Shown: piece by piece, positions 23,616 to 46,792 of the stretch | Position numbering within the stretch: position 1 is the stretch's first letter | Layout of the letters: every line of letters begins with the position of its first letter | NCBI GenBank assembly: GCA_944323785.1 | Contig: CALUTU010000005.1 | Location: forward strand, 39,319-103,318 | Source of the DNA: an uncultured Bacteroidales bacterium | GTDB lineage: Bacteria; Bacteroidota; Bacteroidia; Bacteroidales; UBA932 | Direction: 5' to 3' | Length of the DNA stretch: 64,000 bases | Program-made: the position numbers and the translations under genes | The notes under the pieces: generated by a model | Told to the model about the DNA's origin: nothing | The model's input: the letters and a program-made list of their open reading frames with translations, nothing else | Databases searched by the model: none

Positions 23616-23629
23616 AATATAGGCTAATT

Positions 23630-24616: not shown

Positions 24617-24788
24617 CATAATATAAATAATTAAAACTTTCATTTATCCGAAATCACCGTTGCCGGCATCAATTCACCATGAACAGCCAGAGACGTGATG
24701 TCAATTGCAAAGAAGAACGTATGAATGTCTCAAACTCACATTAATATAATCAAGTTAAACATCAAACAAAGCATGCGCTTATCGGCAG

Positions 24789-24796
24789 CAAAGTTA
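24789..24796 (-). promoter_or_regulatory. Possible internal -7 box TAACTTTG in the 211-bp AT-rich gap of operon 1
   Basis: TAnnTTTG on the minus strand. It lies more than 145 nt upstream of the next start, so this is weak. Confidence 0.25.
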
Positions 24797-24854
24797 CCGA
24801 CATATTTCAAGATAAGCAAATTTTTATAACCAATTCTTATATTGTCGTCCTCTA

Positions 24855-26477: not shown

Positions 26478-26483
26478 GACTCA

Positions 26484-29011: not shown

Positions 29012-29021
29012 GTCCTCCCAT

Positions 29022-30221
29022 TTATGCTTCCATGATGATGGTCAGTGTCCTGGTAACGGAGGCCCCGTCATTGTCGGTAATGACTATTTCCAGTTCATTG
29101 GTCTCCTCAGGCATAGCACTGAGGAATGCCGCGATCTGGAAGACTACCTCTGTCTTGCCCTTCACATCGGCCGATGTTATGCCGAACAGAGTACCCCAGA
29201 AACCCTCCTCTGCCGCATTCATGTTGGCTAAATCCACAGAATAAGACATCTGCATCATATCCAAAAGTCCCCTGAGTCCTGTTGACTTGACATTGACCAC
29301 ATACTTTTCAATACCTGCGGGCGCACTTACCGTCAGATTGAACTCAGAAGGCAGGGCGGACTTGCTGTAGGTGACAGGTTCGTCAATACCGGCTGTGGCC
29401 GAGATGGTGATTGCATCTGTATCAGGAACTTCAGGCTCATCCGGATCTACCGGATTCTCTTCCATACCGTCAATGATGATATGCTCCTCTTTCTCGTTGC
29501 AGGTATAGTCGATGCTTATTCCGTCGGAGAAATCGGCATATCCGGTGCCTCCCGCATCCAGTGTGAAGATATGGTGATCCCTTGCCGCCACCTCGGATAT
29601 CTCCATATGATGAGTGACCGTACCTCCGTTCTTTCTGACGGCATACAGGTCCATGGTCAGAGGCGCCACGTCGAAATAACCGGCGTCACCGGCGTCAATC
29701 CTGTCCTTCGTAAAGATAAGCGGGCCGTCCTCCGTCGTCACTGTTACAGTAAAGTCTGTCTCCACCTCTGCAAGGAACGAGTCGGTACACCGTACTGACA
29801 CTTTCATATTGGCTATAGTGCAGACCACAGATACCTGGGCAGTGCTTCCGGCCTCAACAGTCACCTCCTGGGAACCGAAGAAGACAGGCTGATTCCACGC
29901 TACAGGCTGCTTCTCGCCGGAACCTGCCTCGACTCTGTACACTGCGGGATCCAGAGAGACCGTACCGGGCATATCCGCGTACCTGTCCCACGAATACACC
30001 GTCCTGCCGCTGGCCACATCCACGATATTGATTGCAAATTCATTGACATCTGCTGTCTCTTCTGACTTGGAAACAGGGCTCACTTCTACAAAACTGCCCG
30101 TTGCTGTCAGGGAAAGTGTCAGCTGAGCCTTGTCTCCGCTGTATGACACTCCTTCTTTGTTGCATCCAGTGGCCAATAAGGCTGACACAGCCACTGTCAA
30201 TGCCAAAACTGTCTTCTTCAT
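29022..30221 (-). CDS. Lipoprotein: DUF4493-like N-terminal module + unknown C-terminal domain (operon 1, gene 2)
   Basis: 399-aa ORF with lipobox LATGC. The N-terminal ~230 aa are alignable by eye with the N-termini of the 27281 and 30248 products (…VVCTIANMKVSV…GYF…). Confidence 0.7.
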   Translation of the reverse strand: MKKTVLALTVAVSALLATGCNKEGVSYSGDKAQLTLSLTATGSFVEVSPVSKSEETADVNEFAINIVDVASGRTVYSWDRYADMPGTVSLDPAVYRVEAGSGEKQPVAWNQPVFFGSQEVTVEAGSTAQVSVVCTIANMKVSVRCTDSFLAEVETDFTVTVTTEDGPLIFTKDRIDAGDAGYFDVAPLTMDLYAVRKNGGTVTHHMEISEVAARDHHIFTLDAGGTGYADFSDGISIDYTCNEKEEHIIIDGMEENPVDPDEPEVPDTDAITISATAGIDEPVTYSKSALPSEFNLTVSAPAGIEKYVVNVKSTGLRGLLDMMQMSYSVDLANMNAAEEGFWGTLFGITSADVKGKTEVVFQIAAFLSAMPEETNELEIVITDNDGASVTRTLTIIMEA

Positions 30222-30247
30222 TTTTGTTTTTTTAAAGGTTTTAGTTT

Positions 30248-31990
30248 TTATTCATACATAAGTTCTATATCGTCCACTGCCAGGATACTGCCGCCATGTA
30301 CATTGGCCGACAGGCCGCCGCCGTAGATGATATCCATACCGTACTGCCATTTATCCTTTCCTGAACCGCAGACAAACTCCACATATATAGTATCTGCCTT
30401 CAGGTCTGTCACGGTATAATTTATATCCACATAGACCTGCGTCCACGAGGAGACTGAGGACGAAGATGTGAGCGTGCCCTCTCCTATCACCGTTTCTCCG
30501 CTCTTTACCGAGATATAGGCCTTGAAACTGTCCGAATCATACGGTGAGTATTTGTACCAGAAGCTCATCCGGGTCGGACGGGAGGCGAAAGGACGGCCCT
30601 GCTCCCCGCCGTACACACCTGTGAATATGCGGCCGAAACCGACCGTTGGGAAAGGCGCCGTCCCGCTGGTCGCTGAATTGCTTACAGCAATGGTCATCAT
30701 CTGAGCTGCCCTGTTGCTTTCATGCCCCTCAACATAAGAGACCATCGGGAAACTCTTATAGGATGCACCGGTGTTGGTCCTGTTTCCGGGAGTTGTCTCA
30801 GAATTGTTGCAGTCCCACCACCTGGATTCCTCGTTCAGATAAGGAGCATAATTGGTCTGATATACATCATCCCCCCAGAACAATCCTGTCTTGTTCACAT
30901 AGTATGTCCATTCGCTCCACTCCTCAAAGCCGGCATTCTCCACCTGCTGTGCTGTTTCGGTAGTGAACTCCTGCACGGACGAGACGGCAGACTTGTACCT
31001 GGCACGTATCTCATATCTGGTGGCAGGCTCCAGCCCGGTAAGCGTCACACTGTTGACGCTGCCGGACACCGATGAGGTAAAGGACGGACGGCTCCATTCC
31101 GAAGCACCGTAGGCACGTACCTCCGGGTAGAGCTCCGCCGGATCTCCGTCAGTCGTCATATCCACATACACCCTGGTGGCCCAGACATCTCCGGCAGGAA
31201 TAGCGGATATATCCGCACCGGCCTTGTCGGGCAGCATGTCCGACGGCAGCTCGATATTGACCTGATGGTCATTTGTCGCGGGATCTATCGAGACTGTCAG
31301 AGAGACATCCGAATCGGGAACCTCGCCGGTATCTATCTTCAGGGTGATAAAGTCTCCAGGCTCGCCGACTATCTCCTTTGAGTTAGTGAAGCCTGAAGTT
31401 TCCCCGTCAGGACCGGTCAGTTCCACGTAGACAGAGATATCGCCGCAGGGCAGATATCCCGCTTCCTTACAGTCCTTATCAAAGACCAGTGAGCCGCGCG
31501 AAGTGCTTACAGTCGCCGTATATTCGGTATATTGCTTCCGAATATTGTCTCCGAACTCCACAGCTACCTTCACATTGCCCATACGGCAAGTAACGCTTAC
31601 ATCGGTCACCTGCTGAGGCTGCACGGTAAACTCCTGTTCTCCGATAAAGAAAAATGCATTGAATCCGCTCGCGGCAGAGTCACCGTAAGAAGCCCTCAAT
31701 GTATAGGGTCCTCCGGCGTTCATCGCGAATACGGTACTCTCCTGCGCCAGATATTCGGCATAGGTGTCCCATCTTTTGAAAATAACTCCCTGCGGATTGA
31801 TAATCTCAATCTTGAAGTCTTCCGGACTGAGCTGTCCCTCCGCATCGGCCCTGGTAGCAGTCAGGTCCGTCAGCAGTTCCAGGCGGATACCGCCCATTCC
31901 GGTCTCAAAAGGCACTTCTTCCCTGACAGAACAGGAAACAAGCGACACCAGGAGCAGGAGATACATTGGAAAAAATTTCGCTTTTCTCAT
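30248..31990 (-). CDS. Lipoprotein: DUF4493-like N-terminal module + FN3-like + PCMD-like domain (operon 1, gene 1)
   Basis: 580-aa ORF with lipobox SLVSC followed by SVREE. FN3-like segment VTLTGLEPATRYEIRARY. C-terminal module VENAGFEEWSEW...WWDCNNSETTPGN...LAVDDIELMYE. Confidence 0.75.
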   Translation of the reverse strand: MRKAKFFPMYLLLLVSLVSCSVREEVPFETGMGGIRLELLTDLTATRADAEGQLSPEDFKIEIINPQGVIFKRWDTYAEYLAQESTVFAMNAGGPYTLRASYGDSAASGFNAFFFIGEQEFTVQPQQVTDVSVTCRMGNVKVAVEFGDNIRKQYTEYTATVSTSRGSLVFDKDCKEAGYLPCGDISVYVELTGPDGETSGFTNSKEIVGEPGDFITLKIDTGEVPDSDVSLTVSIDPATNDHQVNIELPSDMLPDKAGADISAIPAGDVWATRVYVDMTTDGDPAELYPEVRAYGASEWSRPSFTSSVSGSVNSVTLTGLEPATRYEIRARYKSAVSSVQEFTTETAQQVENAGFEEWSEWTYYVNKTGLFWGDDVYQTNYAPYLNEESRWWDCNNSETTPGNRTNTGASYKSFPMVSYVEGHESNRAAQMMTIAVSNSATSGTAPFPTVGFGRIFTGVYGGEQGRPFASRPTRMSFWYKYSPYDSDSFKAYISVKSGETVIGEGTLTSSSSVSSWTQVYVDINYTVTDLKADTIYVEFVCGSGKDKWQYGMDIIYGGGLSANVHGGSILAVDDIELMYE

Positions 31991-34564: not shown

Positions 34565-36256
34565 ATGGACAACACACATCAGCGGTCACTTCGGGCACTG
34601 CTCGAGTTCGCCTTTACACGATATGCCGACAAGCCGTTCCTGCATTTCATCGACGGGCCCGGCTACAGCTACGGAGAGTTCCACGCCAAGGTCTATGAGA
34701 CCGCCGGACTGCTGGCCCGCTACGGTATGGGCAGAGGCGACCTCGTGGGGCTGCTCTCGCAGAATATGCCCAACTGGGGCGTAGCGTATTTCGCCACAGC
34801 CGCCTTCGGCATGATTACAGTGCCGATGCTTCCGGATTTTTCCGAGAGCGAGATCAAGCACATACTCAAGCACTCGGAGGCCAGAGCCCTGTTCGTATCC
34901 AGGAAACTGCTGCCGAAAGTCCTGCCGAAAGCCATTGACCGACTGGAGCTGATTATCTGCCTCGACGATTTTTCCATCATCAAGGGAGCTCCGTGCAGTG
35001 AGCCGGCAGAGCTGCCCTCCGAAGCGGACATACAGCCGGACGATCTGGCCGCCATCATCTACACATCAGGCACTACCGGCAGTTCCAAGGGCGTGATGCT
35101 CAGCCACCGCAACCTGTGCGCCAACCTCTGGTCCACCGAGGATGTCCGCCCGAGCTTCGACTGGGACGTGTGGCTGTCCCTGCTGCCCCTGTCCCACACC
35201 CTAGAGTGCAGCATGTGTCTCCTCCTTCCGATGCAGGCCGGAGCCAGCGTCAACTACATCGAAAAGGCACCGACACCGACCATTCTTATGAATGCCCTGG
35301 CACGGGTAAGGCCCACGACCATCCTCTCCGTGCCCCTTATTATAGAAAAGGTATACCGCAGCGCGGTGCTGCCGAAACTCACCGCATCACCTCTGCTCCG
35401 GTTCTTGCACCGCATCCCTCCTTTCAGGAAAATGATGCACCGCAAGGCCGGCCGGATGCTGATGGAAAAATTCGGAGGCCGCATCCGTTTCTTCGGCATC
35501 GGCGGGGCAAGGCTTGACCCCGAGGTGGAACGTTTCCTGCTTGAGGCCCGTTTCCCCTACGCCATAGGCTACGGACTCACCGAGACCTCGCCGCTCATCG
35601 CAGCAGCCACCCCGGACATGGTCCGGCTCGGATCCACCGGCCCGGTAGTCAAAGGCGTGGAGCTGCGTCTGCTCAACAAAGACCCCAGGACAGGCGTAGG
35701 CGAGATAGCCGTCAAGGGAGACAACGTCACACGTGGCTATTTCAAGAACCCCGAGGCCACTTCCGCAGCCTTCACCGAGGACGGCTGGTTCCTGACAAAG
35801 GATCTCGGCAAGCTGGACAAGGACGGCTGGCTCTACATCAAAGGCCGCTCCTCGACTACCATTATCGGCCCGAGCGGAGAGAACATCTATCCCGAAGAAG
35901 TGGAGAGCGTCATCAACAGCCACGATATGGTGTCCGAGTCCCTGGTCACCAACCGCAAGGGCAGGCTTACAGCCTTGGTTCATTTCGATTCCGATAAGCT
36001 CAAGGCCTTTCTCGAGTCCACTGACGAGCTGAAACGCACTGCTCAGGAGAAGCTGGAGAACCTCAAGAAAGAGATTCTGGACTACGTCAACCAGAAAGTC
36101 AGCAAATTCTCCCGCATCAGCGAGATAGACCCTCAGGAGGAGGAGTTCGAGAAGACTGCCACCCACAAGATCAAGCGCTACCTCTACGACGGCTCCAAAT
36201 CCAAAGACTCCAAATCCAAAGACCCCAAATCCAGCAAGCCCTCACACAGCAGGTGA
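34565..36256 (+). CDS. AMP-dependent long-chain acyl-CoA synthetase/ligase
   Basis: 563-aa ORF with the AMP-binding signature IIYTSGTTGSSKGV and GYGLTET. The K/S-rich C-terminal tail and stop codon lie inside the repeat-element tail. Confidence 0.9.
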   Translation: MDNTHQRSLRALLEFAFTRYADKPFLHFIDGPGYSYGEFHAKVYETAGLLARYGMGRGDLVGLLSQNMPNWGVAYFATAAFGMITVPMLPDFSESEIKHILKHSEARALFVSRKLLPKVLPKAIDRLELIICLDDFSIIKGAPCSEPAELPSEADIQPDDLAAIIYTSGTTGSSKGVMLSHRNLCANLWSTEDVRPSFDWDVWLSLLPLSHTLECSMCLLLPMQAGASVNYIEKAPTPTILMNALARVRPTTILSVPLIIEKVYRSAVLPKLTASPLLRFLHRIPPFRKMMHRKAGRMLMEKFGGRIRFFGIGGARLDPEVERFLLEARFPYAIGYGLTETSPLIAAATPDMVRLGSTGPVVKGVELRLLNKDPRTGVGEIAVKGDNVTRGYFKNPEATSAAFTEDGWFLTKDLGKLDKDGWLYIKGRSSTTIIGPSGENIYPEEVESVINSHDMVSESLVTNRKGRLTALVHFDSDKLKAFLESTDELKRTAQEKLENLKKEILDYVNQKVSKFSRISEIDPQEEEFEKTATHKIKRYLYDGSKSKDSKSKDPKSSKPSHSR

Positions 36257-36296
36257 ACCGAAACTCCGCCCAACCGGTATACCAGCACTCACTTTT

Positions 36297-36404
36297 ATGA
36301 AAATTCCAGCAGTCGAAAAGACCAGGCCCTCCCACCGCTTCGCGGCGGGCCCCTCCCTCTAGAGCCGAGGGCGGCTAGTCTTTTCTCGTTGCTGGAATTT
36401 CATA
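36297..36404. repeat. R2 long imperfect palindrome (~108 nt), copy 1
   Basis: ATGAAAATTCCAGCAG...GAAAAGACCAGGCCCTC...GAGGGCGGCTAGTCTTTTC...TGCTGGAATTTCAT. The arms pair over about 35 bp with small bulges. Confidence 0.9.
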
Positions 36405-36457
36405 AGAACACCATACGGAGGAAAGTGTAGTTTCCCCAAAGGCTGGCTTAATAAGAA

Positions 36458-36645
36458 CTTTTACAATGTCCAACACACCGCTCAAATGTATTGTGCTGAT
36501 TATTAAACGCATACATTTTGGCGATTTGCTGGACTGCCCGCTTTTTGCCATAAAACAACCATTTCACCCCAGGTCCAGCAGATGCTCTTTTTCAGAGTGC
36601 CTGTATACTAGGCACTTTCCCAAGCAGGCCCTGCTGGACCTCCCC
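36458..36645. repeat. R3 double-hairpin module, copy 1
   Basis: GTCCAACA...TGCTGGAC and AGGTCCAGCAG...CTGCTGGACCT stems. Nested perfect hairpin AGTGCCT-N7-AGGCACT at 36596-36616. Confidence 0.9.
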
Positions 36646-36661
36646 TGAAGTCTCATGCCAT

Positions 36662-36706
36662 GGGGGAAAGTGAACCGTTTTCGCGGAAAAACCCGGCACT
36701 TTCCCC
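36662..36706. repeat. R1 45-nt hairpin, solitary copy
   Basis: GGGGGAAAGTG-AACCGTTTTCGCGGAAAAACCCGG-CACTTTCCCC. Confidence 0.9.
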
Positions 36707-36749
36707 GCACTCCATTCACCCCCTTTAAGAACCTGACAGCATAGACTCT

Positions 36750-36857
36750 ATGAAAATTCCAGCAGTCGAAAAGACCAGGCCCTCCCACCGCTTCGCGGCG
36801 GGCCCCTCCCTCTAGAGCCGAGGGCGGCTAGTCTTTTCTCGTTGCCGGAATTTCATA
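36750..36857. repeat. R2 long imperfect palindrome, copy 2
   Basis: Same as copy 1 with one arm substitution (TGCCGGAATTTCAT). Confidence 0.9.
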
Positions 36858-36910
36858 AGAACACCATACGGAGGAAAGTGTAGTTTCCCCAAAGGCTGGC
36901 TTAATAAGAA

Positions 36911-37098
36911 CTTTTACAATGTCCAACACACCGCTCAAATGTATTGTGCTGATTATTAAACGCATACATTTTGGCGATTTGCTGGACTGCCCGCTTTTTG
37001 CCATAAAACCGCCATTTCACCCCATGTCCAGCAGATGCTCTTTTTCAGAGTGCCTGTATACTAGGCACTTTCCCAAGTAGGCCCTGCTGGACCTCCCC
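36911..37098. repeat. R3 double-hairpin module, copy 2
   Basis: About 98 percent identical to copy 1 by eye. Confidence 0.9.
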
Positions 37099-37114
37099 TG
37101 AAGTCTCATGCCGC

Positions 37115-37477
37115 GGGGGAAAGTGAACCGTTTTCGCCGAAAAACCCGGCACTTTCCCTGGAGGTGGAAATGCCAAGTGCGGCGAGAGAGGCCTGTGGAG
37201 CCAGTGCCCCGGCCGGCCACGGGGGAAAGTGAACCGTTTTCGCCGAAAAACCCGGCACTTTCCCCGGAGGTGGAAATGCCAAGTGCGGCCAGAGAGGCCT
37301 GTAGAGCCGGTACCCCGGCCGGCCATGGGGGAAAGTGAACCGTTTTCGCCGAAAAACCCGGCACTTTCCCCGGGGGTGGAAATGGCAGGTGCCGCCAGAG
37401 AGGCATGTGGAGCCGGTACCCCTGCGAGCCACGGGGGAAAGTGAACCGTTTTCGCGGAAATTCCCGGCACTTTCCCC
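37115..37477 (+). repeat. 106-bp tandem repeat array (3 full periods, 4 R1 hairpins)
   Basis: R1 hairpins start at 37115, 37221, 37327 and 37433, an exact 106-bp period. The ~61-nt inter-hairpin segments are also about 85-90 percent identical to each other. Confidence 0.95.
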
Positions 37478-37537
37478 GAGGGTCTAGGACAAGGGGAGAA
37501 AAAACGCAAAGGTGGGACGAAATGTTGAATGAAATGA

Positions 37538-37833
37538 AAAGGTAAAAGGGCATGTGACTGGAGGGCTGACGAGGATGATGTGGGACGGAAAGGTAAAAGG
37601 GTATGTGACTGGGGGCTGACGAGGATGATGTGGGACGGAATGGCACAAGGGCGTGTGACTGGAGGGGCTGACGAGGATGATGTGGGACGGAAAGGTAAAA
37701 GGGTATGTGACTGGGGGGCTGACGAGGATGATGTGGGACGGAAAGGTAAAAGGGCGTGTGACTGGAGGGGTTGACGAGGATGATGTGGGACGGAAAGGCA
37801 CAAGGGCGTGTGACTGGAGGGGCTGACGGGACA
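37538..37833 (+). repeat. ~52-bp G-rich, C-poor tandem repeat array (~5.7 units)
   Basis: Unit is AAAGGTAAAAGGGYRTGTGACTGGRGGGCTGACGAGGATGATGTGGGACGG. Units start near 37538, 37589, 37640, 37692, 37744 and 37796. Confidence 0.9.
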
Positions 37834-37849
37834 AGAATGAGACGGGATG

Positions 37850-37899
37850 GGAGGAAAGAGAAGGAGCGCATTCGCCGTCTGTCCGGTCGAATGCGCTCC
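37850..37899 (-). terminator. Rho-independent terminator (end of lipoprotein operon 2)
   Basis: Perfect 12-bp stem GGAGCGCATTCG-N13-CGAATGCGCTCC. On the minus strand it is followed by TTCTCTTTCC. Lies 33 nt after the stop at 37932. Confidence 0.75.
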
Positions 37900-37931
37900 C
37901 TATCAGATTAAACTGGTACTACCCTTATGCT

Positions 37932-39227
37932 CTACTTGGTAACAGTTGACGACATGCTTGTCGGAGCCGCCTTTACCACAGTCATTACTTTACTGTCCTG
38001 CGCAGCGTAACTTGTAGAGGTCTTAGTGAACGTTAAAGTTCCGGCAGGAATATAAGTAGGGTAATCACCGTAATATACACCCACACCGTTATCAAATGAG
38101 AAAATATCTGCAGCCACAACGGTATACTGTACATTGGAACTGCTCATGAGCTCGCGAGAAATGCTCGTCTTGGTATCAGGGTCTATGAGAAATGCGTACT
38201 CAGTACCGCTAAAGATAGTGACAACATCATCTTCCTCATTCCAGCATATAGGTGCACATAGCATATCATTGCCATTTAGGTCCTGAGCTACGGCCATATC
38301 ACCGGTCACGATGCCAAGACACGGCTTTCCATCCTCGCTCTCGATTATGGTAGCCCAAAGAGAATACTCTGACAGAGGAGACAATCCGCTTATCCACACA
38401 TAGTTCTCGTTGGTGGACGGCTGTATGGTAACTGGAATTTCGTCGGCATAGCCAGTTTTGTCAAATTCGAACACTATCTGATCGTTCGAATTGTAGTCAA
38501 CGACAACCCTCGCCGTACATCCTACAGTGTAGGTTCCCAACCACGATCTGAGTTCCTCTACCGGCTCCACGACTTCGTGCTGAACAGTGAACGAGCACTC
38601 TCCAGGAAGTGATTCGCGATATTCGGCTGAGCCTTCTTCAGGCTGGGCGATTACACTCACAGTATGAGTGGTGGCAGTAAGGTCGGAAGTCTGGTATGTG
38701 ACAGACGTCTCCGTGGTAGTCTCCCATTCGCCTGAATCGAGGGAGTAAATGTAAGATGCGGCATGCTCAATGCTGGACCAGCTGACAACAACCCCTCCTT
38801 TACCGTCAGGATTAGCGGTCACTTCCGGAGTCTCCAGTCTTTGAGGCTCTACCTGAGCGGTCACTGTGAAAGTGTATGAGCCGGGTTGCGAGGCAGTGTA
38901 CTGATCAGCGGCATCCAGGGCCGGATTGGCAATGACATAGACCGTATGCTCGCCTTCAGCCAGATCAGAGGTGCTGACGGTTACCGATGTCTGGTCTGTG
39001 GTTCTCGCAGCGTTGCTGTCAATGTTCCAGCTGTAAGTCGCCGCATTGGGGATTTCTGTCCAAGATACCGTAACATTGTCTCCATTGACGGTGGCCGACA
39101 CCTCCGGAGTAGCAAGAGCCACTGCCTCGGCAGGGCCATTCTGTTCCTGGCATGAGAGCGCTACGGCAGCAGCCGCTGACACAGCAAAGAGACGCAGATA
39201 AAAATAGTTCATTTTAAAATATTGCAA
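37932..39227 (-). CDS. Surface lipoprotein with two FN3-like domains + C-terminal domain (operon 2, gene 4)
   Basis: 431-aa ORF with lipobox VALSC followed by QEQ. Two internal repeats are present (TPEVSATVNGDNVTVSWTEIPNAATYSW... and TPEVTANPDGKGGVVVSWSSIEHAASYIY...). Confidence 0.75.
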   Translation of the reverse strand: MQYFKMNYFYLRLFAVSAAAAVALSCQEQNGPAEAVALATPEVSATVNGDNVTVSWTEIPNAATYSWNIDSNAARTTDQTSVTVSTSDLAEGEHTVYVIANPALDAADQYTASQPGSYTFTVTAQVEPQRLETPEVTANPDGKGGVVVSWSSIEHAASYIYSLDSGEWETTTETSVTYQTSDLTATTHTVSVIAQPEEGSAEYRESLPGECSFTVQHEVVEPVEELRSWLGTYTVGCTARVVVDYNSNDQIVFEFDKTGYADEIPVTIQPSTNENYVWISGLSPLSEYSLWATIIESEDGKPCLGIVTGDMAVAQDLNGNDMLCAPICWNEEDDVVTIFSGTEYAFLIDPDTKTSISRELMSSSNVQYTVVAADIFSFDNGVGVYYGDYPTYIPAGTLTFTKTSTSYAAQDSKVMTVVKAAPTSMSSTVTK

Positions 39228-39252
39228 TGTAAATTCTTAAATTAAATTATAC

Positions 39253-40659
39253 TTAGTCCTCGTATGCGTAATTGACAAGGGTGTTGATCGGAATGTTGAC
39301 AGCATTGTCCACAACCGCACCGAAATCCCCGTAGAGGACATTCGCAACGCTACCGGTGTAAGTTCCATTGTAGGTTGTGTAGACTACTACGTGCAGATTG
39401 TCGGTATTCTCAACTGAAGACGGAACGCGTACTTTCAGCTGGGTCACGTAAGTGCCGTTGGCCTCCAGCGAGACATTGTCTCCCATAAGGTTGTCGGTCA
39501 TCTCTATACGAATCACGTTATTGTGGACATAATCCTCGCTGCCTCCCAGCTGGTAGTACACCAGGCCGTCCTCAAGCAGGAAGGCGTGCAGCGCATACAG
39601 ACCCGCCTCCTTCGAGGCTATGCTGATGTCCGCATAGACAGTGTCATTCTCCAATCTGGTCACTCCGCCTATAACGGTATTGGAAGGCAACTCACGGACA
39701 GCCTCCTCGGCCAATCCGCTAAACTCATCAGTCATAATGGTCGGATTGGTGTTGTTGGCTATTTCTCCGTAATAGTTGACAAATCCCCTCGGATAGCTGG
39801 CTACTCCAAACATGGCAATGAAGGCATTGCAGTTAGAGTACGCGAGGCTTGTATTCCCGTTGAGGGCGAAAGTGTGCATATTCATGGGAATGATATGATC
39901 GGCCACATTTCTCTCAGCTTCCTCAAGAGCCTGGTTCATAGTAGGACAGTTCACACACCCCGTACTTGTGAAACGGATAGCAAGGGAGCGTCTCACGAAA
40001 GTGCGGCTGTAGTCAGCGACAAGCGAGCCTATCTGCTCCACGGTAATGGTCGCGGTAGTCACGCCGTCCTCGCCCGTAAGGGTGATGTGGCCTTCTCTGA
40101 TCTCGCCGTCATTGCCCTGTATGGACAGATTGACTACGGATGTCATGTACTTGGAGTAAGTATGGTTGTCCTCCAGAAGCGTGGAGTCATACTGGATACC
40201 GGTAACCGTCAGCCAGTCCACGTCCGGTACGGCCTCGTACTTCACATTTCCCTCCACGGGGAAGGCAAAAGTCTGCTCCGTAGATGTTACGGTATAGCTG
40301 TCAGGGGATATGCTAAAGCCGGGGGTACCGTCCTGGAACACGTAGTACAGGGTCTCGGTGCCGTTGACTGTCACGGCGAAATTTCCGGCTCTTTCCTTTA
40401 GTCCGGAATTTGTTTCCAGAATGGAGATAGTCAGATTGGCCGTCCCCGCGCTGCCTCTCATCGGTGTCACTACAAACCATGACGCCCGGTTCTCCAGAGT
40501 CCAGTCGGAGTCAAACTCGAGCGAGGTCTGGACTGTTGTCACCTCGTTCGGAACTGAAATGGAATTGCCTATGATGGCATCAGGCCCGTCCTCTCCCGGT
40601 TTGCAGGAGAGGATGAAAGCCATACCAAGAACTATAAATAATATTTTTGAGAATTTCAT
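39253..40659 (-). CDS. Lipoprotein: BACON-like domains + Omp28-related thioredoxin-fold domain with CxxC (operon 2, gene 3)
   Basis: 468-aa ORF with lipobox FILSC. BACON-like segment ASWFVVTPMRGSAGTANLTISI. RFTSTGCVNCP resembles the FTxxxCxxCP motif of Omp28-related proteins, from memory. Confidence 0.7.
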   Translation of the reverse strand: MKFSKILFIVLGMAFILSCKPGEDGPDAIIGNSISVPNEVTTVQTSLEFDSDWTLENRASWFVVTPMRGSAGTANLTISILETNSGLKERAGNFAVTVNGTETLYYVFQDGTPGFSISPDSYTVTSTEQTFAFPVEGNVKYEAVPDVDWLTVTGIQYDSTLLEDNHTYSKYMTSVVNLSIQGNDGEIREGHITLTGEDGVTTATITVEQIGSLVADYSRTFVRRSLAIRFTSTGCVNCPTMNQALEEAERNVADHIIPMNMHTFALNGNTSLAYSNCNAFIAMFGVASYPRGFVNYYGEIANNTNPTIMTDEFSGLAEEAVRELPSNTVIGGVTRLENDTVYADISIASKEAGLYALHAFLLEDGLVYYQLGGSEDYVHNNVIRIEMTDNLMGDNVSLEANGTYVTQLKVRVPSSVENTDNLHVVVYTTYNGTYTGSVANVLYGDFGAVVDNAVNIPINTLVNYAYED

Positions 40660-40677
40660 ACTACAATATATGATTGA

Positions 40678-42210
40678 TTATTGCAACTGACCAGTATATG
40701 ATCCAGTAAATCTATGTCCCATATCGTCATACAATTCGAAGGAGACAGTACGGTCTCCGTTCTCCTCAGTGGAAACCGTTACTTTACCGCTCGCGGCCGG
40801 AGCATTGATATGTTCTGAACTCGAAGCACCGGGTTCCTTTATTATAAGATACGTTCCTTGTGCGTAGTCAATAAAAGTGCCAGACGCTAATTTATCACCT
40901 ACGGTATAGGTTCCGTCAGGGAGCACTCCGTTATTGTTATCAATGAAGAACGTAGCACGGAACTCATTACCTTTTTTGAAACCAGCATTATCTCCCTTTT
41001 CTGCTATGTTTATTCTCATCTCCGGATCGTTAGCCCAGGTTGAAAGCGTGAAAGTCGTCCCGAATTCAGTAGTATTGAATGCGACATCGAGGATATCTTC
41101 GGTCATGTTAGAGCCAATGGTGGAAGAAGGCACAGTGATATTTCCCGCATATGAGCCGGAGAGAGTGTAGTACTGGTTGATGACGAAGTCGAAAGAGATG
41201 TTGTCTGCGGCTATCTCCATGGAACCGCCTACCACGGCACCCAGATTGGAGTCATCAACTTTCACAAAGGTGTTATAGCCACTGCCCCCGGAAAGCTCAC
41301 CTTCTATAATGCTGAAAGCATCGGTGATGCCGGTAGACACTACGTTGTAAGTTCCTGCCTCCGGACTTCCGTCTACAACGTTGGCGTAGAATAAGACAGT
41401 CAACTCGGCTCCCTCATTGGTTGTGAAAGTTGTAACGAACCTGTTCACACCATTGTCACTCTCCGAGACGCCATCTATACTGACAGAGGTAAATGTGAGC
41501 TCGATATCCTCGTCTATCTGATACTCGAACAGCGTAGTGGGGAATTCGGACTGTACCTCGCTGTATGCCGTCCCGTTCTGGGCGGCCACGGCGAGAGTAT
41601 AAGAGGTATTGGAAGCCAGGCCTTCCACTGTCACTTCGCTCTGGCTCAGGTCAACCTGAGTTCCGGTCTGCAGTATCTCATCGGCATGAGGTATGGCCTC
41701 GCTTCTGCCGACTACCACGTAGGCGATAGCCTCAGCATCCCCCTGGGTATATGTGAAAGTGAGACCGTCTCTCTTGGGCCTTACACTTTCGATGGCTACC
41801 GTGGGGATAATCACCTCGTCACCGCCCTCTGCCAGAGTTGTGACCTCAAGCGTAGCCACGCTGCTGTAGAGGTCGCCATTGGCGGCTGCAGCAGCCAGAA
41901 CATACGATGTCTCAGGCGTGAGACCGTCAGCGGTATAGGTTGCAGACTCCGTTCCGGCCGAATGTCCGGAAGCCAGTATCTCCTCAGCTGTGGGAACTGT
42001 CTCTCCGGTCTCCACGATCTGCCATGCCACGCTCTCGGCATTGGCAGGAGTCAGAGTGAAGTCGACGGAGGTTGTCTTTGCCTCGCCGAGGGATATCGAG
42101 ACAGTGGGCTCTACCGGTGTGTCGGGAGTTTCCGGCTCCTTATCCTCGCAGGAGAACAGCGACAGGCATGCAAGACCTGCCATAATCGCTGGTATATAAT
42201 AAGTCTTCAT
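40678..42210 (-). CDS. Surface lipoprotein with two FN3-like domains + C-terminal domain (operon 2, gene 2)
   Basis: 510-aa ORF with lipobox SLFSC followed by EDKEPE. Repeats end in DGLTPETSYVLAAAAANGDLYS and EGLASNTSYTLAVAAQNGTAYS. Paralogous to the N-terminus of 21678-23615. Confidence 0.78.
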   Translation of the reverse strand: MKTYYIPAIMAGLACLSLFSCEDKEPETPDTPVEPTVSISLGEAKTTSVDFTLTPANAESVAWQIVETGETVPTAEEILASGHSAGTESATYTADGLTPETSYVLAAAAANGDLYSSVATLEVTTLAEGGDEVIIPTVAIESVRPKRDGLTFTYTQGDAEAIAYVVVGRSEAIPHADEILQTGTQVDLSQSEVTVEGLASNTSYTLAVAAQNGTAYSEVQSEFPTTLFEYQIDEDIELTFTSVSIDGVSESDNGVNRFVTTFTTNEGAELTVLFYANVVDGSPEAGTYNVVSTGITDAFSIIEGELSGGSGYNTFVKVDDSNLGAVVGGSMEIAADNISFDFVINQYYTLSGSYAGNITVPSSTIGSNMTEDILDVAFNTTEFGTTFTLSTWANDPEMRINIAEKGDNAGFKKGNEFRATFFIDNNNGVLPDGTYTVGDKLASGTFIDYAQGTYLIIKEPGASSSEHINAPAASGKVTVSTEENGDRTVSFELYDDMGHRFTGSYTGQLQ

Positions 42211-42237
42211 GTTTGAATATTCTAAGTATTAAATTGT

Positions 42238-43074
42238 TTATCCATTTATGTACATATAGTTCTCAATGCTGCCGGAGAAGAACAGTCCATAGCTCCGACC
42301 GTCCGAGCATGTCACCTCGGCTTCCAACTGTATCTCGTTGTTGCCGAGATCGGTGATGATGACAGTACCGTCAGTGATAGCATAGCGGGGATTGTAACCG
42401 TAATTCTCCGCAGCGATACCGTAGAAAGAGGTCTGGCAGAATGTACCCGGCTCCATAGTGGCCTGAGGATCGTAGGTGTAAGTACCCGCAGGCAGGGTGA
42501 CAAGTCTCCTGTAAGTGTTGCCGTTCTGCTGGAACTCCTCTGTAACAGGCTCCTCGCTTGAGTAGAAGTTGATATTGAGACCTTCGGAGCCTACCACCCA
42601 AAGTCCATTCGTGGATACCCATGTATAATAGGACTTATCGGATGTATAGTACTCGCCAGTGCAGGACTTGGCATCGATGAACACATCTGTGTTCTGGCCG
42701 TCCTGATGCACGAAGGCTGTGTCGAGCAGGAATCCGGTACTGTAGTCATATCTGATGACGACAGTATCCGTGCGTTCATGCGACGGGTTGGCCTCTATGT
42801 CGAACGACAGGGTGTTGGTGGCAATGTCATCACCAGTGAAAGTAATCCAGTCCGAAGAAGTTATAAAGAAGTCTCCGTCGTTTTCGGGGCGGTTAACGAA
42901 CTGGTAGGTCATGGAAATAGTACCACCGTCCTGAGGGACGTCGAAGTAATCGGTGTTCAGCTGGAATGCGGAGTCTCCGTTGCCATTGCCGTTGCCTCCG
43001 CCTGTCTGCTGTTCACAAGCAGCCGCCAGTATCATGACTACAGCTGCTGAAAATAGAATAAACTTGCTCTTCAT
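42238..43074 (-). CDS. Lipoprotein with BACON-like N-terminal domain (operon 2, gene 1)
   Basis: Start set at MKSKFILF (43074), downstream of the -7 box. Lipobox ILAAC followed by EQQTGGGNGNGNG. BACON-like segment reads VPQDGGTISMTYQF...DTVVIRYD. Confidence 0.72.
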   Translation of the reverse strand: MKSKFILFSAAVVMILAAACEQQTGGGNGNGNGDSAFQLNTDYFDVPQDGGTISMTYQFVNRPENDGDFFITSSDWITFTGDDIATNTLSFDIEANPSHERTDTVVIRYDYSTGFLLDTAFVHQDGQNTDVFIDAKSCTGEYYTSDKSYYTWVSTNGLWVVGSEGLNINFYSSEEPVTEEFQQNGNTYRRLVTLPAGTYTYDPQATMEPGTFCQTSFYGIAAENYGYNPRYAITDGTVIITDLGNNEIQLEAEVTCSDGRSYGLFFSGSIENYMYING

Positions 43075-43097
43075 CTTGATTGATTTAATAGTACGTT

Positions 43098-43105
43098 TAA
43101 AACGG
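43098..43105 (-). promoter_or_regulatory. -7 box TAAATTTG (lipoprotein operon 2)
   Basis: TAnnTTTG on the minus strand, 24 nt upstream of the ATG at 43074. Confidence 0.55.
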
Positions 43106-43266
43106 TGCAAATTTAATGCAAAAAAATCAGATTGTGACAAGTGTGTGACAAAAAAACGTATGGCAAAATAAACGTAGGTTTAAATTGCTGTTCCATCCAG
43201 AGATACACAGCAACTGGGTAATTGCATGACCTGCATGTAGGTAACTGCGCTGTCAGTGACTGAATG

Positions 43267-44103
43267 TCAGTCCCGGCGCATGTACAGAGACAGTCTTCTG
43301 GCCTGCATTCCGGACAGTATGCCGTTCTCGACTATGGCCTGCAATGAGAAAACGCTGTCAGGGACAGTGCGGCGGAAGCGGTCTATGCCTTTTGCGGCAT
43401 ACGGGCCTATATAAGGGTGTGACGCCATGGAGTCAACGGACATGGTGCGCAGGTCCAGTCTCCGGACGGATGCCGGCTCTATAAACACATAGTCGTAAAG
43501 ACGATTGAGACGTGCAGTGTCGAATCCGCGGATATCCAGCAGCTGACTGACGTCCGCGTAACTCCCGAGGCGCTCGCGGTAACTCAATATCTGCTTTGCG
43601 TACCACGGTCCTATTCCAGGCAGCGCATCCAGAGCCGCGCTGTCGGCGGAGTTAAGTTCCACCATATCCCATTTCCATCCGTCGTAATCGTATTCATACC
43701 GCCGGCTCTCTGTCCCAGTTGCGGACACATCTCCGACAGATGCCGCGGCTCCGGTTCCAGCAGCATCCGCAGGTCCGTCTTGCGGCACTTTGTTCTTATC
43801 CACGGAGCCTGTGCTTCCGTACTGTCCCGTAGCTGCCACTGCATTCCGGCCGCCTGGCTCAGCACCTTGCCGCTCATTAACAGACGGATAACGGACGATG
43901 CCGGCAGTGTCGGATGAAGGCGGCCTGCCCTGGGTGGAAACTGTCCCTGATGCTGTGCCTGTCTCGGCACGCCTGCTATTAATAATAAGGTGTCTGGTGA
44001 AAAATACAGCCTGGGCCGTCAGAATCAGGAACACCAGGATGATGACTCCGTTGGAGAAAAGACGCTCAGTCCTCCCTTTCCTCTTTTTCTCTTCTTCCCA
44101 CAT
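43267..44103 (-). CDS. ComEA-like helix-hairpin-helix DNA-binding membrane protein
   Basis: 278-aa ORF with an N-terminal TM helix. HhH region reads ELNSADSAALDALPGIGPWYAKQILSYRERLG, with a second HhH-like repeat. Low-complexity G/A/T-rich linker. Overlaps the rsmI 3' end by 38 nt. Confidence 0.8.
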   Translation of the reverse strand: MWEEEKKRKGRTERLFSNGVIILVFLILTAQAVFFTRHLIINSRRAETGTASGTVSTQGRPPSSDTAGIVRYPSVNERQGAEPGGRNAVAATGQYGSTGSVDKNKVPQDGPADAAGTGAAASVGDVSATGTESRRYEYDYDGWKWDMVELNSADSAALDALPGIGPWYAKQILSYRERLGSYADVSQLLDIRGFDTARLNRLYDYVFIEPASVRRLDLRTMSVDSMASHPYIGPYAAKGIDRFRRTVPDSVFSLQAIVENGILSGMQARRLSLYMRRD

Positions 44104-44776
44104 ATGCTTTCCCTTCTACTGTTAGTACTATCTCCCCTTTGGGCGGGTTGTCCGTGAACCACGAGGCCAGCTCTGAGAGCGTCCCCCTGCGGGTCTCCTC
44201 GTGGACCTTGCTGATCTCGCGGGAGACCGACGCCCTGCGCTCCGGCCCGAAATACCCGCACATCTGCGACAGGGTCCTGGCCAGCCGGTAGGGCGACTCG
44301 TAGAATATCATGGTGCGGCCTTCGGAGGCGAGCTCTGTCAGGCGGGTCTGACGGCCCTTCTTTACCGGCAGGAAACCCTCGAACGAGAACCTGTCGGCCG
44401 GTAGTCCCGAGTCTATAAGAGCCGGTACGAAGGCCGTGGCTCCGGGCAGAGTAATGACATCTATACCTTCTTCAGCGCATGCACGGGCCAGCATGAATCC
44501 AGGATCGGAAATGCCCGGGGTACCGGCGTCCGACACCAATGCTATGTCCATACCTGAGAGGAGCTTTTCGCAGACTGGGCGGACACGGGCGTGCTCGTTG
44601 AACTTGTGGTGCGCCTCCGTAGGCTTTGATATCCCGTAGTGCTTCAGAAGTACGGATGTGGTCCTGGTGTCCTCGGCCAGGATGAGGTCCACCTGTTTCA
44701 GAACCGCGATGGCTCTGAAAGTCATGTCTTCCAGATTGCCCACAGGAGTGGGTACGATATAAAGCTTGCCGGCCAT
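44066..44776 (-). CDS. rsmI: 16S rRNA (cytidine1402-2'-O)-methyltransferase
   Basis: Start set at MAGKLYIVPTPVGNLEDMTFRA, the typical RsmI N-terminus. Tetrapyrrole-methylase fold. Confidence 0.9.
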   Translation of the reverse strand: MAGKLYIVPTPVGNLEDMTFRAIAVLKQVDLILAEDTRTTSVLLKHYGISKPTEAHHKFNEHARVRPVCEKLLSGMDIALVSDAGTPGISDPGFMLARACAEEGIDVITLPGATAFVPALIDSGLPADRFSFEGFLPVKKGRQTRLTELASEGRTMIFYESPYRLARTLSQMCGYFGPERRASVSREISKVHEETRRGTLSELASWFTDNPPKGEIVLTVEGKAYVGRREKEERED

Positions 44777-44799
44777 GACGGTAAAATGGTATAAAATGT

Positions 44800-44807
44800 T
44801 AATTTTG
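44800..44807 (+). promoter_or_regulatory. -7 box TAATTTTG (tdk)
   Basis: TAnnTTTG 50 nt upstream of the ATG at 44857. Confidence 0.45.
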
Positions 44808-44843
44808 CACTCCGGATGCCGGGACGACTGCATCCGCAAAGAA

Positions 44844-44851
44844 CAAAAGTA
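44844..44851 (-). promoter_or_regulatory. -7 box TACTTTTG (rsmI)
   Basis: TAnnTTTG on the minus strand, 68 nt upstream of the ATG at 44776. Face-to-face with the tdk promoter. Confidence 0.4.
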
Positions 44852-44856
44852 AGAAA

Positions 44857-45429
44857 ATGTTTTCAGAATACGCAAAAAAACCGGGATGGATAGAAGTAAT
44901 CTGCGGCTCGATGTTCTCGGGCAAGACCGAGGAGCTTATACGCCGTCTGAAGCGGGCCAAGTTCGCCAATCAGCGGGTAGAGATATTCAAGCCCGGCATA
45001 GATACCAGATACTCAGTGCAGGAAGTAGTCTCACACGATGCCACTGCCATACTTTCCACACCGGTGGAGTCTTCGGCCAGTATCCTGCTGCTCTCCGGAG
45101 ACGTGGACGTGGTGGGCATAGATGAGGCCCAGTTCTTCGACGACGGCATAGTGGACGTGTGCCGCCAGCTTGCATCCTCGGGCATAAGAGTCATAGCCGC
45201 CGGCCTGGACATGGACTACCAGGGAAAACCGTTCGGCCCCATGCCGGCTCTTATGGCCGTGGCCGAATACGTGGACAAGGTACATGCCATCTGTGTCAGA
45301 TGCGGTGATCCCGCACTGCATTCCCACCGGCTGAGCACAAGCGACCGCCTGGTGGAACTCGGGGAGAAGGATATCTACGAGCCTCTCTGCCGCCATTGCT
45401 TCAATAAATGCATGGAGAATTCTGATTAA
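44857..45429 (+). CDS. tdk: Thymidine kinase
   Basis: 190-aa ORF with the P-loop [12 protein letters not shown] and a C-terminal Zn ribbon (CVRCG...CRHC). Confidence 0.93.
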
Positions 45430-45454
45430 CCCTATGCTAATTCCGAATTTTCAT

Positions 45455-45462
45455 TATTTTTG
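45455..45462 (+). promoter_or_regulatory. -7 box TATTTTTG (CNNM-family gene)
   Basis: TAnnTTTG 26 nt upstream of the ATG at 45488. A second match, TACATTTG at 45479-45486, is too close to the ATG. Confidence 0.45.
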
Positions 45463-45487
45463 CATTCGTGACTATTCTTACATTTGA

Positions 45488-46792
45488 ATGGAAATTTTTA
45501 TAATTCTACTTCTTATTCTACTCAACGGCCTCTTCTCCATGAGTGAGGTTGCTCTGATAAGCGCAAGAAAATCAAGTCTTACAGCCGATGCCAAAAGGGG
45601 CAGCCGCTCCGCCAAAAATGTTCTCAATCTTACTGAAAGACCCAATAAGTTCCTGTCTACAGTGCAGATAGGGATAACTCTCATCGGTATTCTCACCGGT
45701 ATCTATTCGGGAGCTTCGATAGCGGACAAGTTCTCCGACATACTCGAGGGCTGGGGGCTGGCGGAAAGTGTGGCCCAGCCTCTTGCGCAGGTATCCATAG
45801 TTATCATCGTGACATATCTGACCATTGTTCTCGGCGAGCTGGTTCCCAAACGTCTGGGTATGGGCTCTCCGGAGAGTATCGCCAAGGTAATGTCCGGCCC
45901 CATGCTGGTACTCTCGTGGATAGCCACCCCTTTCGTGTGGATACTGGACAAGAGCACATCCCTGTTTGTCAAGGCTTTCCATGTAGAGGAGAAAGAAGCC
46001 AAGGTGACTGAGGAGGAGATCAAGTCGATGGTGGCCGAGGGCAAGGAGGACGGAGAGGTACAGGATGTGGAGCAGGATATCGTAGAAAGAGTATTCTCTT
46101 TAGGCGACAGAAAAATAGAGTCCATCATGACCAGCCGCAACGAGATAGTGTGGATAGACAAGGAGATGACACGGGAGGAAATCAATACTACTGTGCAGGA
46201 GAATCTCTTTGAGGTATATCCCGTGGGCGACGGCAGTCTTGATGAGATAGTCGGGGTTGTCTACCTGAAGGATCTCTTCGGCAAGCTGGACAACGAGAAA
46301 TTCTCTATAGATGACATCATACGCCCCGTGCAGTATTTCCACGAGTATACGGACGTATATAAGGTGCTGGAGCAGATGAAGAAGGCTCACGTGACCTACG
46401 GTCTGGTCTGCGACGAGTTCGGAGTATGCCAGGGTATCGTGACATACAAGGACATACTGGAAGGTCTGGTCGGCTCCATAGATGACGAGGAGGACGAGCC
46501 GGATATCATCGAGCGCCAGAACGGAGGCGGCTGGCTGGTGGACGGTCAGTGCCCTTTCTACGACTTCCTGGCCCATTTTGACATGGAGGAACTGGCATCG
46601 GAAAACGATTACAATACGGTCGGTGGCCTGATTCTTGAATTACTTGAGCACATACCCAAGTCCGGGGAGTATGTGGAGTGGAACGGCTTCCGCCTTGAGG
46701 TTGTGGACATGGACGGAGCGAGAATAGACAAAGTGCTTGTCAACAGAACGGTCTCTGAGCCCGAAGATGTTAAGGACGATAAAGAAAAATAG
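45488..46792 (+). CDS. CNNM/TlyC-family membrane protein (DUF21 + CBS pair + CorC_HlyC)
   Basis: 434-aa ORF with N-terminal TM helices. Has the CBS pair region and C-terminal transporter-associated domain typical of 'hemolysin family protein'. Confidence 0.85.
   Translation: MEIFIILLLILLNGLFSMSEVALISARKSSLTADAKRGSRSAKNVLNLTERPNKFLSTVQIGITLIGILTGIYSGASIADKFSDILEGWGLAESVAQPLAQVSIVIIVTYLTIVLGELVPKRLGMGSPESIAKVMSGPMLVLSWIATPFVWILDKSTSLFVKAFHVEEKEAKVTEEEIKSMVAEGKEDGEVQDVEQDIVERVFSLGDRKIESIMTSRNEIVWIDKEMTREEINTTVQENLFEVYPVGDGSLDEIVGVVYLKDLFGKLDNEKFSIDDIIRPVQYFHEYTDVYKVLEQMKKAHVTYGLVCDEFGVCQGIVTYKDILEGLVGSIDDEEDEPDIIERQNGGGWLVDGQCPFYDFLAHFDMEELASENDYNTVGGLILELLEHIPKSGEYVEWNGFRLEVVDMDGARIDKVLVNRTVSEPEDVKDDKEK

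Follow-up and report, generated by a model that had tools for sequence, protein, structure and literature searches.

The described systems that come closest to the locus reported here are found in Porphyromonas gingivalis and Paraprevotella clara. The P. gingivalis protein HBP35 has a thioredoxin activity that depends on its cysteines, binds hemin through the part of the polypeptide that follows the thioredoxin motif, and is required by the bacterium to grow when little hemin is available (PMC2907840). It is located at the cell surface, is exported by the type IX secretion system via its C-terminal domain, and is anchored to A-lipopolysaccharide (A-LPS). In P. clara, the surface proteins 00502 and 00509 recruit trypsin, and 00502, which is annotated as Omp28-related, takes part in the partnered capture of this host protein (PMC9477747). 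The same protein is a type IX substrate, for which the authors modelled a WD40 domain and five immunoglobulin (Ig)-like domains (PMC9477747). Here we describe a four-gene operon, operon 2, which lies in a 64,000-nucleotide (nt) stretch of DNA (the window) from an uncultured Bacteroidales bacterium and in which one gene codes for a lipoprotein related to HBP35. The window belongs to contig C5; the genome (G000 in our genome set) measures 1.97 Mb and is 87% complete, and close homologues of its proteins carry the name Candidatus Coprenecus, an uncultured gut genus of the Rikenellaceae. The same window holds a further all-lipoprotein operon, operon 1 (21678-31990).

Operon 2 consists of four open reading frames (LP1-LP4, 37932-43074), all on the minus strand and each starting with a signal peptide and a lipobox cysteine, which bears out the four co-directional lipoprotein genes proposed in the first-pass annotation. 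In the reading that we favour, and to which we assign a probability of roughly 40 per cent, LP3 would be a stalked surface lipoprotein with a thiol-redox or ligand-binding function, the other three proteins would be its variable adaptors, and the whole set would be a satellite of an envelope thiol-redox system. The genes, in the order of transcription, are the following.

LP1, 42238-43074, minus strand: 278-residue lipoprotein with a divergent BACON domain and a C-terminal beta domain containing an LPxGTY motif.
LP2, 40678-42210, minus strand: 510-residue lipoprotein with two FN3 domains and two beta-domain copies, C1 (residues 229-362) and C2 (residues 363-510).
LP3, 39253-40659, minus strand: 468-residue lipoprotein with two BACON domains, a thioredoxin fold and an Omp28 domain.
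LP4, 37932-39212, minus strand: 426-residue lipoprotein with two FN3-like domains, a 185-residue all-beta C domain and a disordered tail.

It is the Omp28/thioredoxin member that would define the operon. LP3 scored 67.4 bits with the Omp28 family (PF11551; Pfam cut-off 34.9) and 35.7 bits with the BACON family (PF13004; cut-off 25). Its thioredoxin motif is C235-V-N-C238-P, followed by a probable cis-proline, P290, and by the Omp28 domain with a DYVHN motif. In a set of 22 homologues reaching down to 26% identity, C235 and C238 were invariant, P239 and P290 were conserved in at least 90%, and the family motif could be written as FT(A/G)TWCxxCP; the GYP(T) loop, conserved to at least 90% in the same set, probably provides with P290 the cis-proline of the thioredoxin fold. 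Searches of solved structures with the single sequences of LP2 and LP3 gave nothing useful, and only the profile of the LP3 family succeeded: it matched HBP35 (5y1a) with E=1.8e-7 over 211 positions, Omp28 (2r2c) with E=2.8e-7, and dozens of thioredoxins at the CxxC. In these alignments the CxxC of LP3 fell on the FTAEWCGYCP of HBP35 as well as on the active-site motif of the thioredoxins. No type IX C-terminal sorting domain was found in LP3 by Pfam and NCBIfam scans; the protein has its lipobox at the N-terminus and ends in NYAYED. The first-pass annotation had described the operon as free of enzymes. With a thioredoxin fold, an invariant CxxC and a conserved probable cis-proline in LP3 this description fails, because LP3 shares homology with HBP35, for which thioredoxin activity has been measured.

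That the best match of the LP3 family among solved structures was HBP35 raises the alternative of heme capture, in which LP3 would be an HBP35-like surface hemin binder acting through its Omp28 domain and the DYVHN motif, LP1, LP2 and LP4 would assist it as lipoproteins that resemble hemophores or bind hemoproteins, and the CxxC would be secondary. HBP35 binds hemin with residues 135-344, C-terminal to its thioredoxin motif, and the growth of an hbp35 mutant is impaired under hemin scarcity; moreover, a Y-x-H-N-x-V-x-R motif is conserved across the LP3 homologues, HBP35 and Omp28. The match to HBP35 is nevertheless remote (profile E of about 1e-7), and the histidines proposed for HBP35 may not be conserved in LP3. 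No gene for a TonB-dependent heme receptor or for an HmuY-type or Hus-type protein was found in operon 2, and the five Omp28 paralogues of the source genome, together with the tie to DsbD and TlpA, point to thiol chemistry. For these reasons we consider heme capture as the principal role of the operon unlikely.

The tie to DsbD and TlpA emerged from the genomic neighbourhoods of seven LP3 homologues. Four of them, which come from several lineages and are 36-42% identical to LP3, had a gene for a TlpA/AhpC-type redoxin and a gene for a DUF6029 barrel downstream; in both such loci that reached far enough upstream a full-length DsbD gene preceded, and a DsbD_N fragment was present upstream in a third. 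A second BACON-Omp28 gene often lay downstream in these loci. Two of the seven followed BACON/FN3 lipoprotein genes, as LP3 does, and one (P0176) was without such partners. The source genome itself carries the redox arrangement on another contig:

C12:42487-48047: DsbD / BACON-Omp28 / TlpA-like / DUF6029 operon of the source genome, Pfam-confirmed and present in one copy.
C12:44582-46006: Omp28 lipoprotein paralogue of this core operon, adjoining the genes for the TlpA-like redoxin and DUF6029.

The DUF6029 barrel encoded on C12 has a pair of cysteines, CSGGVC, at its end.

In 151 Rikenellaceae genomes the Omp28 domain was detected in 31 and DUF6029, always single-copy, in 29, all of which were among the 31. 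About half of the Omp28 genes in these genomes (36/74) lay no more than 8 kb from the one DUF6029 gene; the remaining 38 were satellites. Two genomes had Omp28 and no detected DUF6029. One of them, G064, was considered as a counter-example, namely as a core operon lacking DUF6029, and was set aside, since its contig breaks off about 800 nt past DsbD; G048, the second one, is 87% complete and is split into 360 contigs. The five Omp28 genes of the source genome comprise one core copy (C12) and four satellites, every one of which follows a large lipoprotein gene with BACON, FN3 or 645-like domains, the last being those of a 645-residue protein encoded in operon 1. One of these upstream lipoproteins, C9_531, also carries the C2 domain found in LP2. 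A genome of another genus (G005) has 13 satellites; in five of the seven loci fetched from it, one or more Omp28 genes lay in co-directional clusters with other large open reading frames, lipoprotein signals being detected on the partners in three of these five clusters, and two satellites were solitary. Partners located upstream of satellite Omp28 genes in G005 (L043 3134-4927; L047 5916-7688 and 7716-9341) carry, immediately behind the lipidated cysteine, a motif rich in Cys and His (C-TQD-C-PH, C-EK-C-EH and C-QKE-C-EH). A literature search for Omp28-related proteins, PF11551 and DUF6029 turned up no work on operons of this kind.

In a phylogenetic tree, the LP3 proteins from the loci with a conserved LP1-LP2-LP3 trio (see below) formed one supported clade (99/98), and the DsbD-linked homologues were scattered over deeper parts of the midpoint-rooted tree, which suggests that the satellites may derive from the core copy. 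As LP3 is paralogous to the lipoprotein inside the DsbD/TlpA/DUF6029 operon, operon 2 is best read as a putative satellite of that system and not as its core module.

Conservation of the locus as a whole was studied next to that of its parts. The full four-gene operon was present with the same flanks in two genomes of the same genus. In genus g16 and in lineage L028/L029 the order LP1-LP2-LP3 was kept at 35-48% identity between unrelated flanks, and LP4 was absent from the g16 and L028 versions. On this comparison of gene orders LP1-LP2-LP3 would be the conserved core of the operon, and LP4, which is specific to the genus, is probably a later addition.

The partners of LP3 appear to consist of beta sandwiches. 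The BACON domain of LP1 scored 22.2 bits, which is below the Pfam cut-off of 25, and more distant relatives of LP1 reached 28-32 bits. The family is tiny: in a set of 1.84 billion representative proteins it makes up about ten clusters when grouped at 50% identity. When profiles of the whole proteins LP1 and LP2 were compared, only the signal peptides aligned, and this comparison was discarded. At the level of domains, the C-terminal domain of LP1 aligned with C2 of LP2 with an hhalign probability of 49% (E=1.7e-4), and C1 and C2 of LP2 aligned with each other with a probability of 89% (E=2.5e-6). The cysteine C257 of LP1 was considered as a free-cysteine redox partner of LP3, and the idea was dropped because the position is occupied by glycine in four of nine family members.

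LP2 gave a Pfam fn3 match, its residues 30-228 were modelled by AlphaFold with a predicted confidence (pLDDT) of about 90, and Foldseek matched this part to the FN3 domains of fibronectin. C2 is also the C-terminal domain of at least eight paralogous lipoproteins in the source genome. A solitary LP2-like gene (65% identity) occurs in two same-genus genomes, G101 (L020) and G139 (L021), where a TAG codon ends it after about 365 residues, so that C2 is lacking; these genomes have no LP1, LP3 or LP4. A 356-residue LP2-like form (cluster P0086) is common in metagenomes, with 83 member sequences. LP4 had no Pfam family above threshold, and its Foldseek matches were FN3 arrays only, FN3 domains dominating the Foldseek results for both LP2 and LP4. 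Its AlphaFold model had a mean pLDDT of 82, with about 90 in the C domain and less than 50 in the tail (residues 404-426). Conservation was higher in this disordered tail (37932-38003; mean identity 97%) than in the folded C domain (88%), and even in homologues only 27-33% identical the last residue of the tail is K or R; it may act in docking or as a donor peptide. Pfam and NCBIfam scans of LP1-LP4 detected no member of the fimbrillin family (type V pilus FimA/Mfa), and the models were FN3-type sandwiches.

BACON and FN3 domains are common in glycan-binding lipoproteins and glycosidases of the Bacteroidota. With matches to both domains in operon 2, the four proteins could be thought of as glycan-binding lipoproteins left over from a polysaccharide utilisation system that has lost SusC and SusD, BACON and FN3 being its carbohydrate-binding or spacer modules. 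A polysaccharide utilisation locus is recognized by its SusC-like transporter and SusD-like lipoprotein, and no open reading frame for either was found in or beside operon 2, nor did the operon contain a carbohydrate-active enzyme or a sensor. The flanks (acyl-CoA ligase, ComEA-like HHH protein, rsmI, tdk and CNNM-type protein) recur unchanged in two genomes of the same genus. The partner that is conserved, a thioredoxin/Omp28 protein, does not belong to the usual equipment of such loci. A role in glycan binding is therefore, in our judgement, quite improbable.

Evolutionary rates differed within the operon. Between strains, the ratio of non-synonymous to synonymous substitution rates (dN/dS) was about 0.4 for LP4, about 0.35 for LP2, about 0.25 for LP1 and 0.02-0.16 for LP3; for most flanking genes it was 0.12 or less, the short HHH gene giving a noisy value. 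With values of about 0.35-0.45, LP2 and LP4 evolve faster than LP3. Variable patches were located at residues 294-315 of LP2, at residues 238-270 of LP4 and, unexpectedly, in the thioredoxin region of LP3 after the CxxC. In three same-genus genomes the synonymous rate (dS) along the locus (34565-46792) was a mosaic of values between 0 and 0.6: it was 0 for tdk, 0.12-0.2 for the gene of the CNNM-type protein and up to 0.6, in one pair, for the acyl-CoA ligase gene. This mosaic indicates frequent recombination at the locus. Because all dN/dS values were well below 1, there was no sign of strong positive selection.

These rates bear on a further alternative, in which operon 2 would encode a passive coat or a set of adhesins, that is, four antigenically variable structural or adhesive lipoproteins in which the CxxC of LP3 is a structural disulfide. 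It would account for the fast divergence of LP1, LP2 and LP4, for the recombination suggested by the mosaic dS, for the hypervariable patches of LP2 and LP4, for families that are narrow and lineage-specific, and for the fact that all domains except the thioredoxin fold are non-catalytic beta sandwiches. A structural pair of cysteines, however, is unlikely to keep the thioredoxin spacing, the following proline and the probable cis-proline loop in proteins at 26-88% identity, and is just as unlikely to be found beside DsbD and TlpA, as it is in the LP3 paralogues; nor do dN/dS values well below 1 speak for such a set. We regard a passive role as rather doubtful.

The first-pass annotation had seen in operons 1 and 2 two related cassettes of a BACON-like and a tandem-FN3 lipoprotein within 20 kb, which suggested a duplicated surface module. 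Like operon 2, operon 1 codes for lipoproteins throughout and has an FN3 gene after a BACON-type one, and the first FN3 domains are homologous; unlike operon 2, it encodes PCMD-domain proteins and a small barrel and has no Omp28/thioredoxin gene. The proposed homology between LP2 and the 645-residue protein of operon 1 (21678-23615), for which statistical support was to be sought, proved significant (E=1e-12, 30% identity over 127 residues), although it involves one domain of the latter protein only. Each FN3 domain of LP2 matched the first FN3 domain of the 645-residue protein at about 34% identity (E=6e-13 and 2e-13), and the later parts of that protein did not match LP2 strongly. A search of 5.8 billion proteins placed the family of the 645-residue protein next after LP2's own orthologues. 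The tandem-FN3 module of LP2 was, however, closer to other proteins from other Rikenellaceae genomes (36-40% identity, E between 1e-23 and 1e-26). As for the BACON proteins, such a gene does precede the FN3 gene in both operons, but both domains score below threshold (22.2 bits for LP1 and 17.8 bits for the 337-residue protein of operon 1, with a Pfam cut-off of 25), and the two mature proteins matched each other with no better than E=0.002. This value and the closer relatives of the FN3 pair elsewhere led us to reject a local tandem duplication of operon 1. Operon 2 is not a duplicated cassette, because the similarity amounts to one FN3 domain and a generic BACON domain. The same domains recur in at least ten other lipoprotein genes of the 2-Mb source genome, and the likeness of the two operons is best explained by modular domain shuffling within a large, genome-wide lipoprotein family.

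The layout of the locus was in keeping with a single transcription unit. The gaps predicted earlier as 18-27 nt measured 27 nt between LP1 and LP2, 18 nt between LP2 and LP3 and, if LP4 starts at the TTG at 39227, 25 nt between LP3 and LP4. The last gap becomes 40 nt with the ATG at 39212, which is the start that we favour because the orthologues measure 425-428 residues. The lipobox contexts are AAAC-EQQ in LP1, FSC-EDKE in LP2, LSC-KPGEDGPD in LP3 and LSC-QEQ in LP4. In all four proteins the lipid-bearing cysteine is thus followed by acidic residues, a pattern that is kept in the orthologues and that fits the lipoprotein export signal of the Bacteroidota. Two signals bound the operon.

Bacteroidota-type -7 promoter box TAAATTTG, 43108-43115, minus strand: consensus match that ends 33 nt upstream of the ATG of LP1.
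Intrinsic-terminator-like hairpin (37861-37901) followed by UUCUCUUUCC, 37851-37901, minus strand: assessed by folding energy against shuffled sequences.

The promoter box claimed in the first-pass annotation is present, but 10 nt away from the position given there (43098-43105). It is the sole minus-strand TAnnTTTG within or just upstream of operon 2, its sequence is unchanged in two genomes of the same genus, and two other lineages likewise have a TAnnTTTG upstream of LP1, at a distance of 40-120 nt. Because this motif occurs 32 times in the window, where 17.9 occurrences are expected, the lone match is by itself suggestive and no more. An imperfect 17-nt inverted repeat (43083-43099 and 43169-43185, 82% complementary) brackets a 69-nt segment that contains the box. 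An invertible promoter was considered and set aside; the segment is short, no recombinase was found in the vicinity and two relatives have it in the same orientation, so the repeat was treated as a probable chance occurrence. The terminator, which had been proposed as well, held up: the hairpin (14+3 bp) folds with -36.4 kcal/mol (z=-3.92), a value that not one of 200 shuffled sequences reached, and the pyrimidine run UUCUCUUUCC follows it. Taken together, the arrangement argues for a real, separate, all-lipoprotein operon, which we read as one putative transcription unit.

A repeat-rich spacer adjoins operon 2 directly downstream, as had been noted before. Between LP4 and the acyl-CoA ligase gene it measures about 1675 bp in the window (36257-37931), about 1120 bp in L018 (12039-13158) and about 1335 bp in L019 (4391-5725), and these differences among three same-genus genomes suggest variation in repeat copy number. 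Horizontal transfer was considered for operon 2 and rejected, the GC content of 46-54%, compared with 50-60% in the flanks, not being distinctive.

The gene structure, domains, homologies, conservation, genomic associations and rates given above were computed in this work; surface exposure, complex formation, redox activity, the electron source and the ligand are what we infer from them in the favoured reading. In this scheme operon 2 would be transcribed as one unit and yield a set of surface-exposed outer-membrane lipoproteins. LP3 would be the functional head, and its two BACON domains would form a stalk that keeps the thioredoxin CxxC domain and the Omp28 beta sandwich off the membrane. 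LP1, LP2 and LP4 would be non-catalytic, quickly evolving beta-sandwich subunits with binding or adaptor functions, which would set what the complex captures. LP3 would bind an external ligand and act on it via its CxxC; our first guess for this ligand is a disulfide-bonded protein, and our second is heme, as for HBP35. Reducing power would be supplied in trans by the DsbD/TlpA-like/DUF6029 system, and, as such a supply would require, the core redox module is present in the same genome (C12).

Several observations weigh against this scheme. With the NCBIfam model NF033782 (Omp28 family outer membrane lipoprotein) LP3 scored 47.3 bits, far from the cut-off of 150. Its active-site sequence reads STGCVNCP, compared with a family consensus of TWCGYCP, and the residue pair inside the CxxC varies widely in the family (VN, KN, PN, QY, GY, TN, GW and others). 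The region just after the CxxC (residues 236-320; 39760-39960) is the least conserved part of LP3 among close homologues, at 78% identity compared with 92-98% in the BACON domains; such a variable thioredoxin region would fit a tuned or a relaxed site equally well as a conserved catalytic one. LP3 may also face the periplasm. The C-terminal half of LP2 was poorly modelled (pLDDT 30-60), and a ligand-binding site was not identified in LP1, LP2 or LP4. Operon 2 contains no gene for DsbD, TlpA or the barrel, so that any electron supply is purely one that we infer, and the co-distribution of Omp28 and DUF6029, judged from their occurrence in related genomes, is confounded by shared ancestry.

A bolder extension of the favoured reading is that the satellite Omp28/thioredoxin cassettes serve a reducing pathway that spans the envelope, as exchangeable heads for the capture of substrates, a proposal that we put forward as a speculation unlikely to hold in full. 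Electrons would pass from DsbD to the TlpA-like redoxin, then across the outer membrane, through or at the DUF6029 barrel with its cysteine pair, and finally to the surface thioredoxin lipoproteins, and the fast-evolving FN3/BACON partners would select extracellular disulfide targets such as host proteases, immunoglobulin A, mucins, defensins or cystine. If true, this would mean extracellular disulfide reduction at a Gram-negative surface, with a specificity diversified by cassette expansion (four satellites here and 13 in one relative).

The Bacteroidales are rich in operons that consist of hypothetical lipoproteins without any functional handle, and operon 2 gains such a handle from its HBP35-related, DsbD-linked head. 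It raises the questions of whether thiol-disulfide chemistry takes place on the outer surface of gut Bacteroidota, whether the variable BACON/FN3 lipoproteins are specificity adaptors, and why the cassettes have expanded in some lineages. Should the redox reading prove mistaken, operon 2 would be an ordinary lineage-specific set of surface proteins and of limited interest.

When operon 2 is set beside the described systems, the likeness to P. clara 00502 is an analogy only, drawn from descriptions: 00502 is, as the operon 2 proteins would be in our reading, an Ig-like-domain, surface-anchored Bacteroidota protein acting with a partner, and PMC9477747 mentions no thioredoxin motif for it. P. 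gingivalis Omp28 (PG2173, PDB 2r2c, PF11551) shares the Omp28 domain and the YxHNxVxR motif with LP3; the 2r2c chain consists of the beta domain only, to which LP3 adds BACON stalks. HBP35 (PDB 5y1a) has at its N-terminus a thioredoxin fold with FTxxWCxxCP and then, as LP3 does after its own thioredoxin fold, a beta domain of the Omp28 type. Unlike HBP35, LP3 is a lipoprotein, starts with two BACON domains, lacks a C-terminal sorting domain and is encoded together with partner lipoproteins. In the DsbD/TlpA-like/DUF6029 operons of the Bacteroidota the Omp28 lipoprotein is the one found to be 36-42% identical to LP3, whereas operon 2 has LP1, LP2 and LP4 in place of the redox-supply genes. To these systems the present work adds satellites that are arranged with partner lipoproteins of their own.

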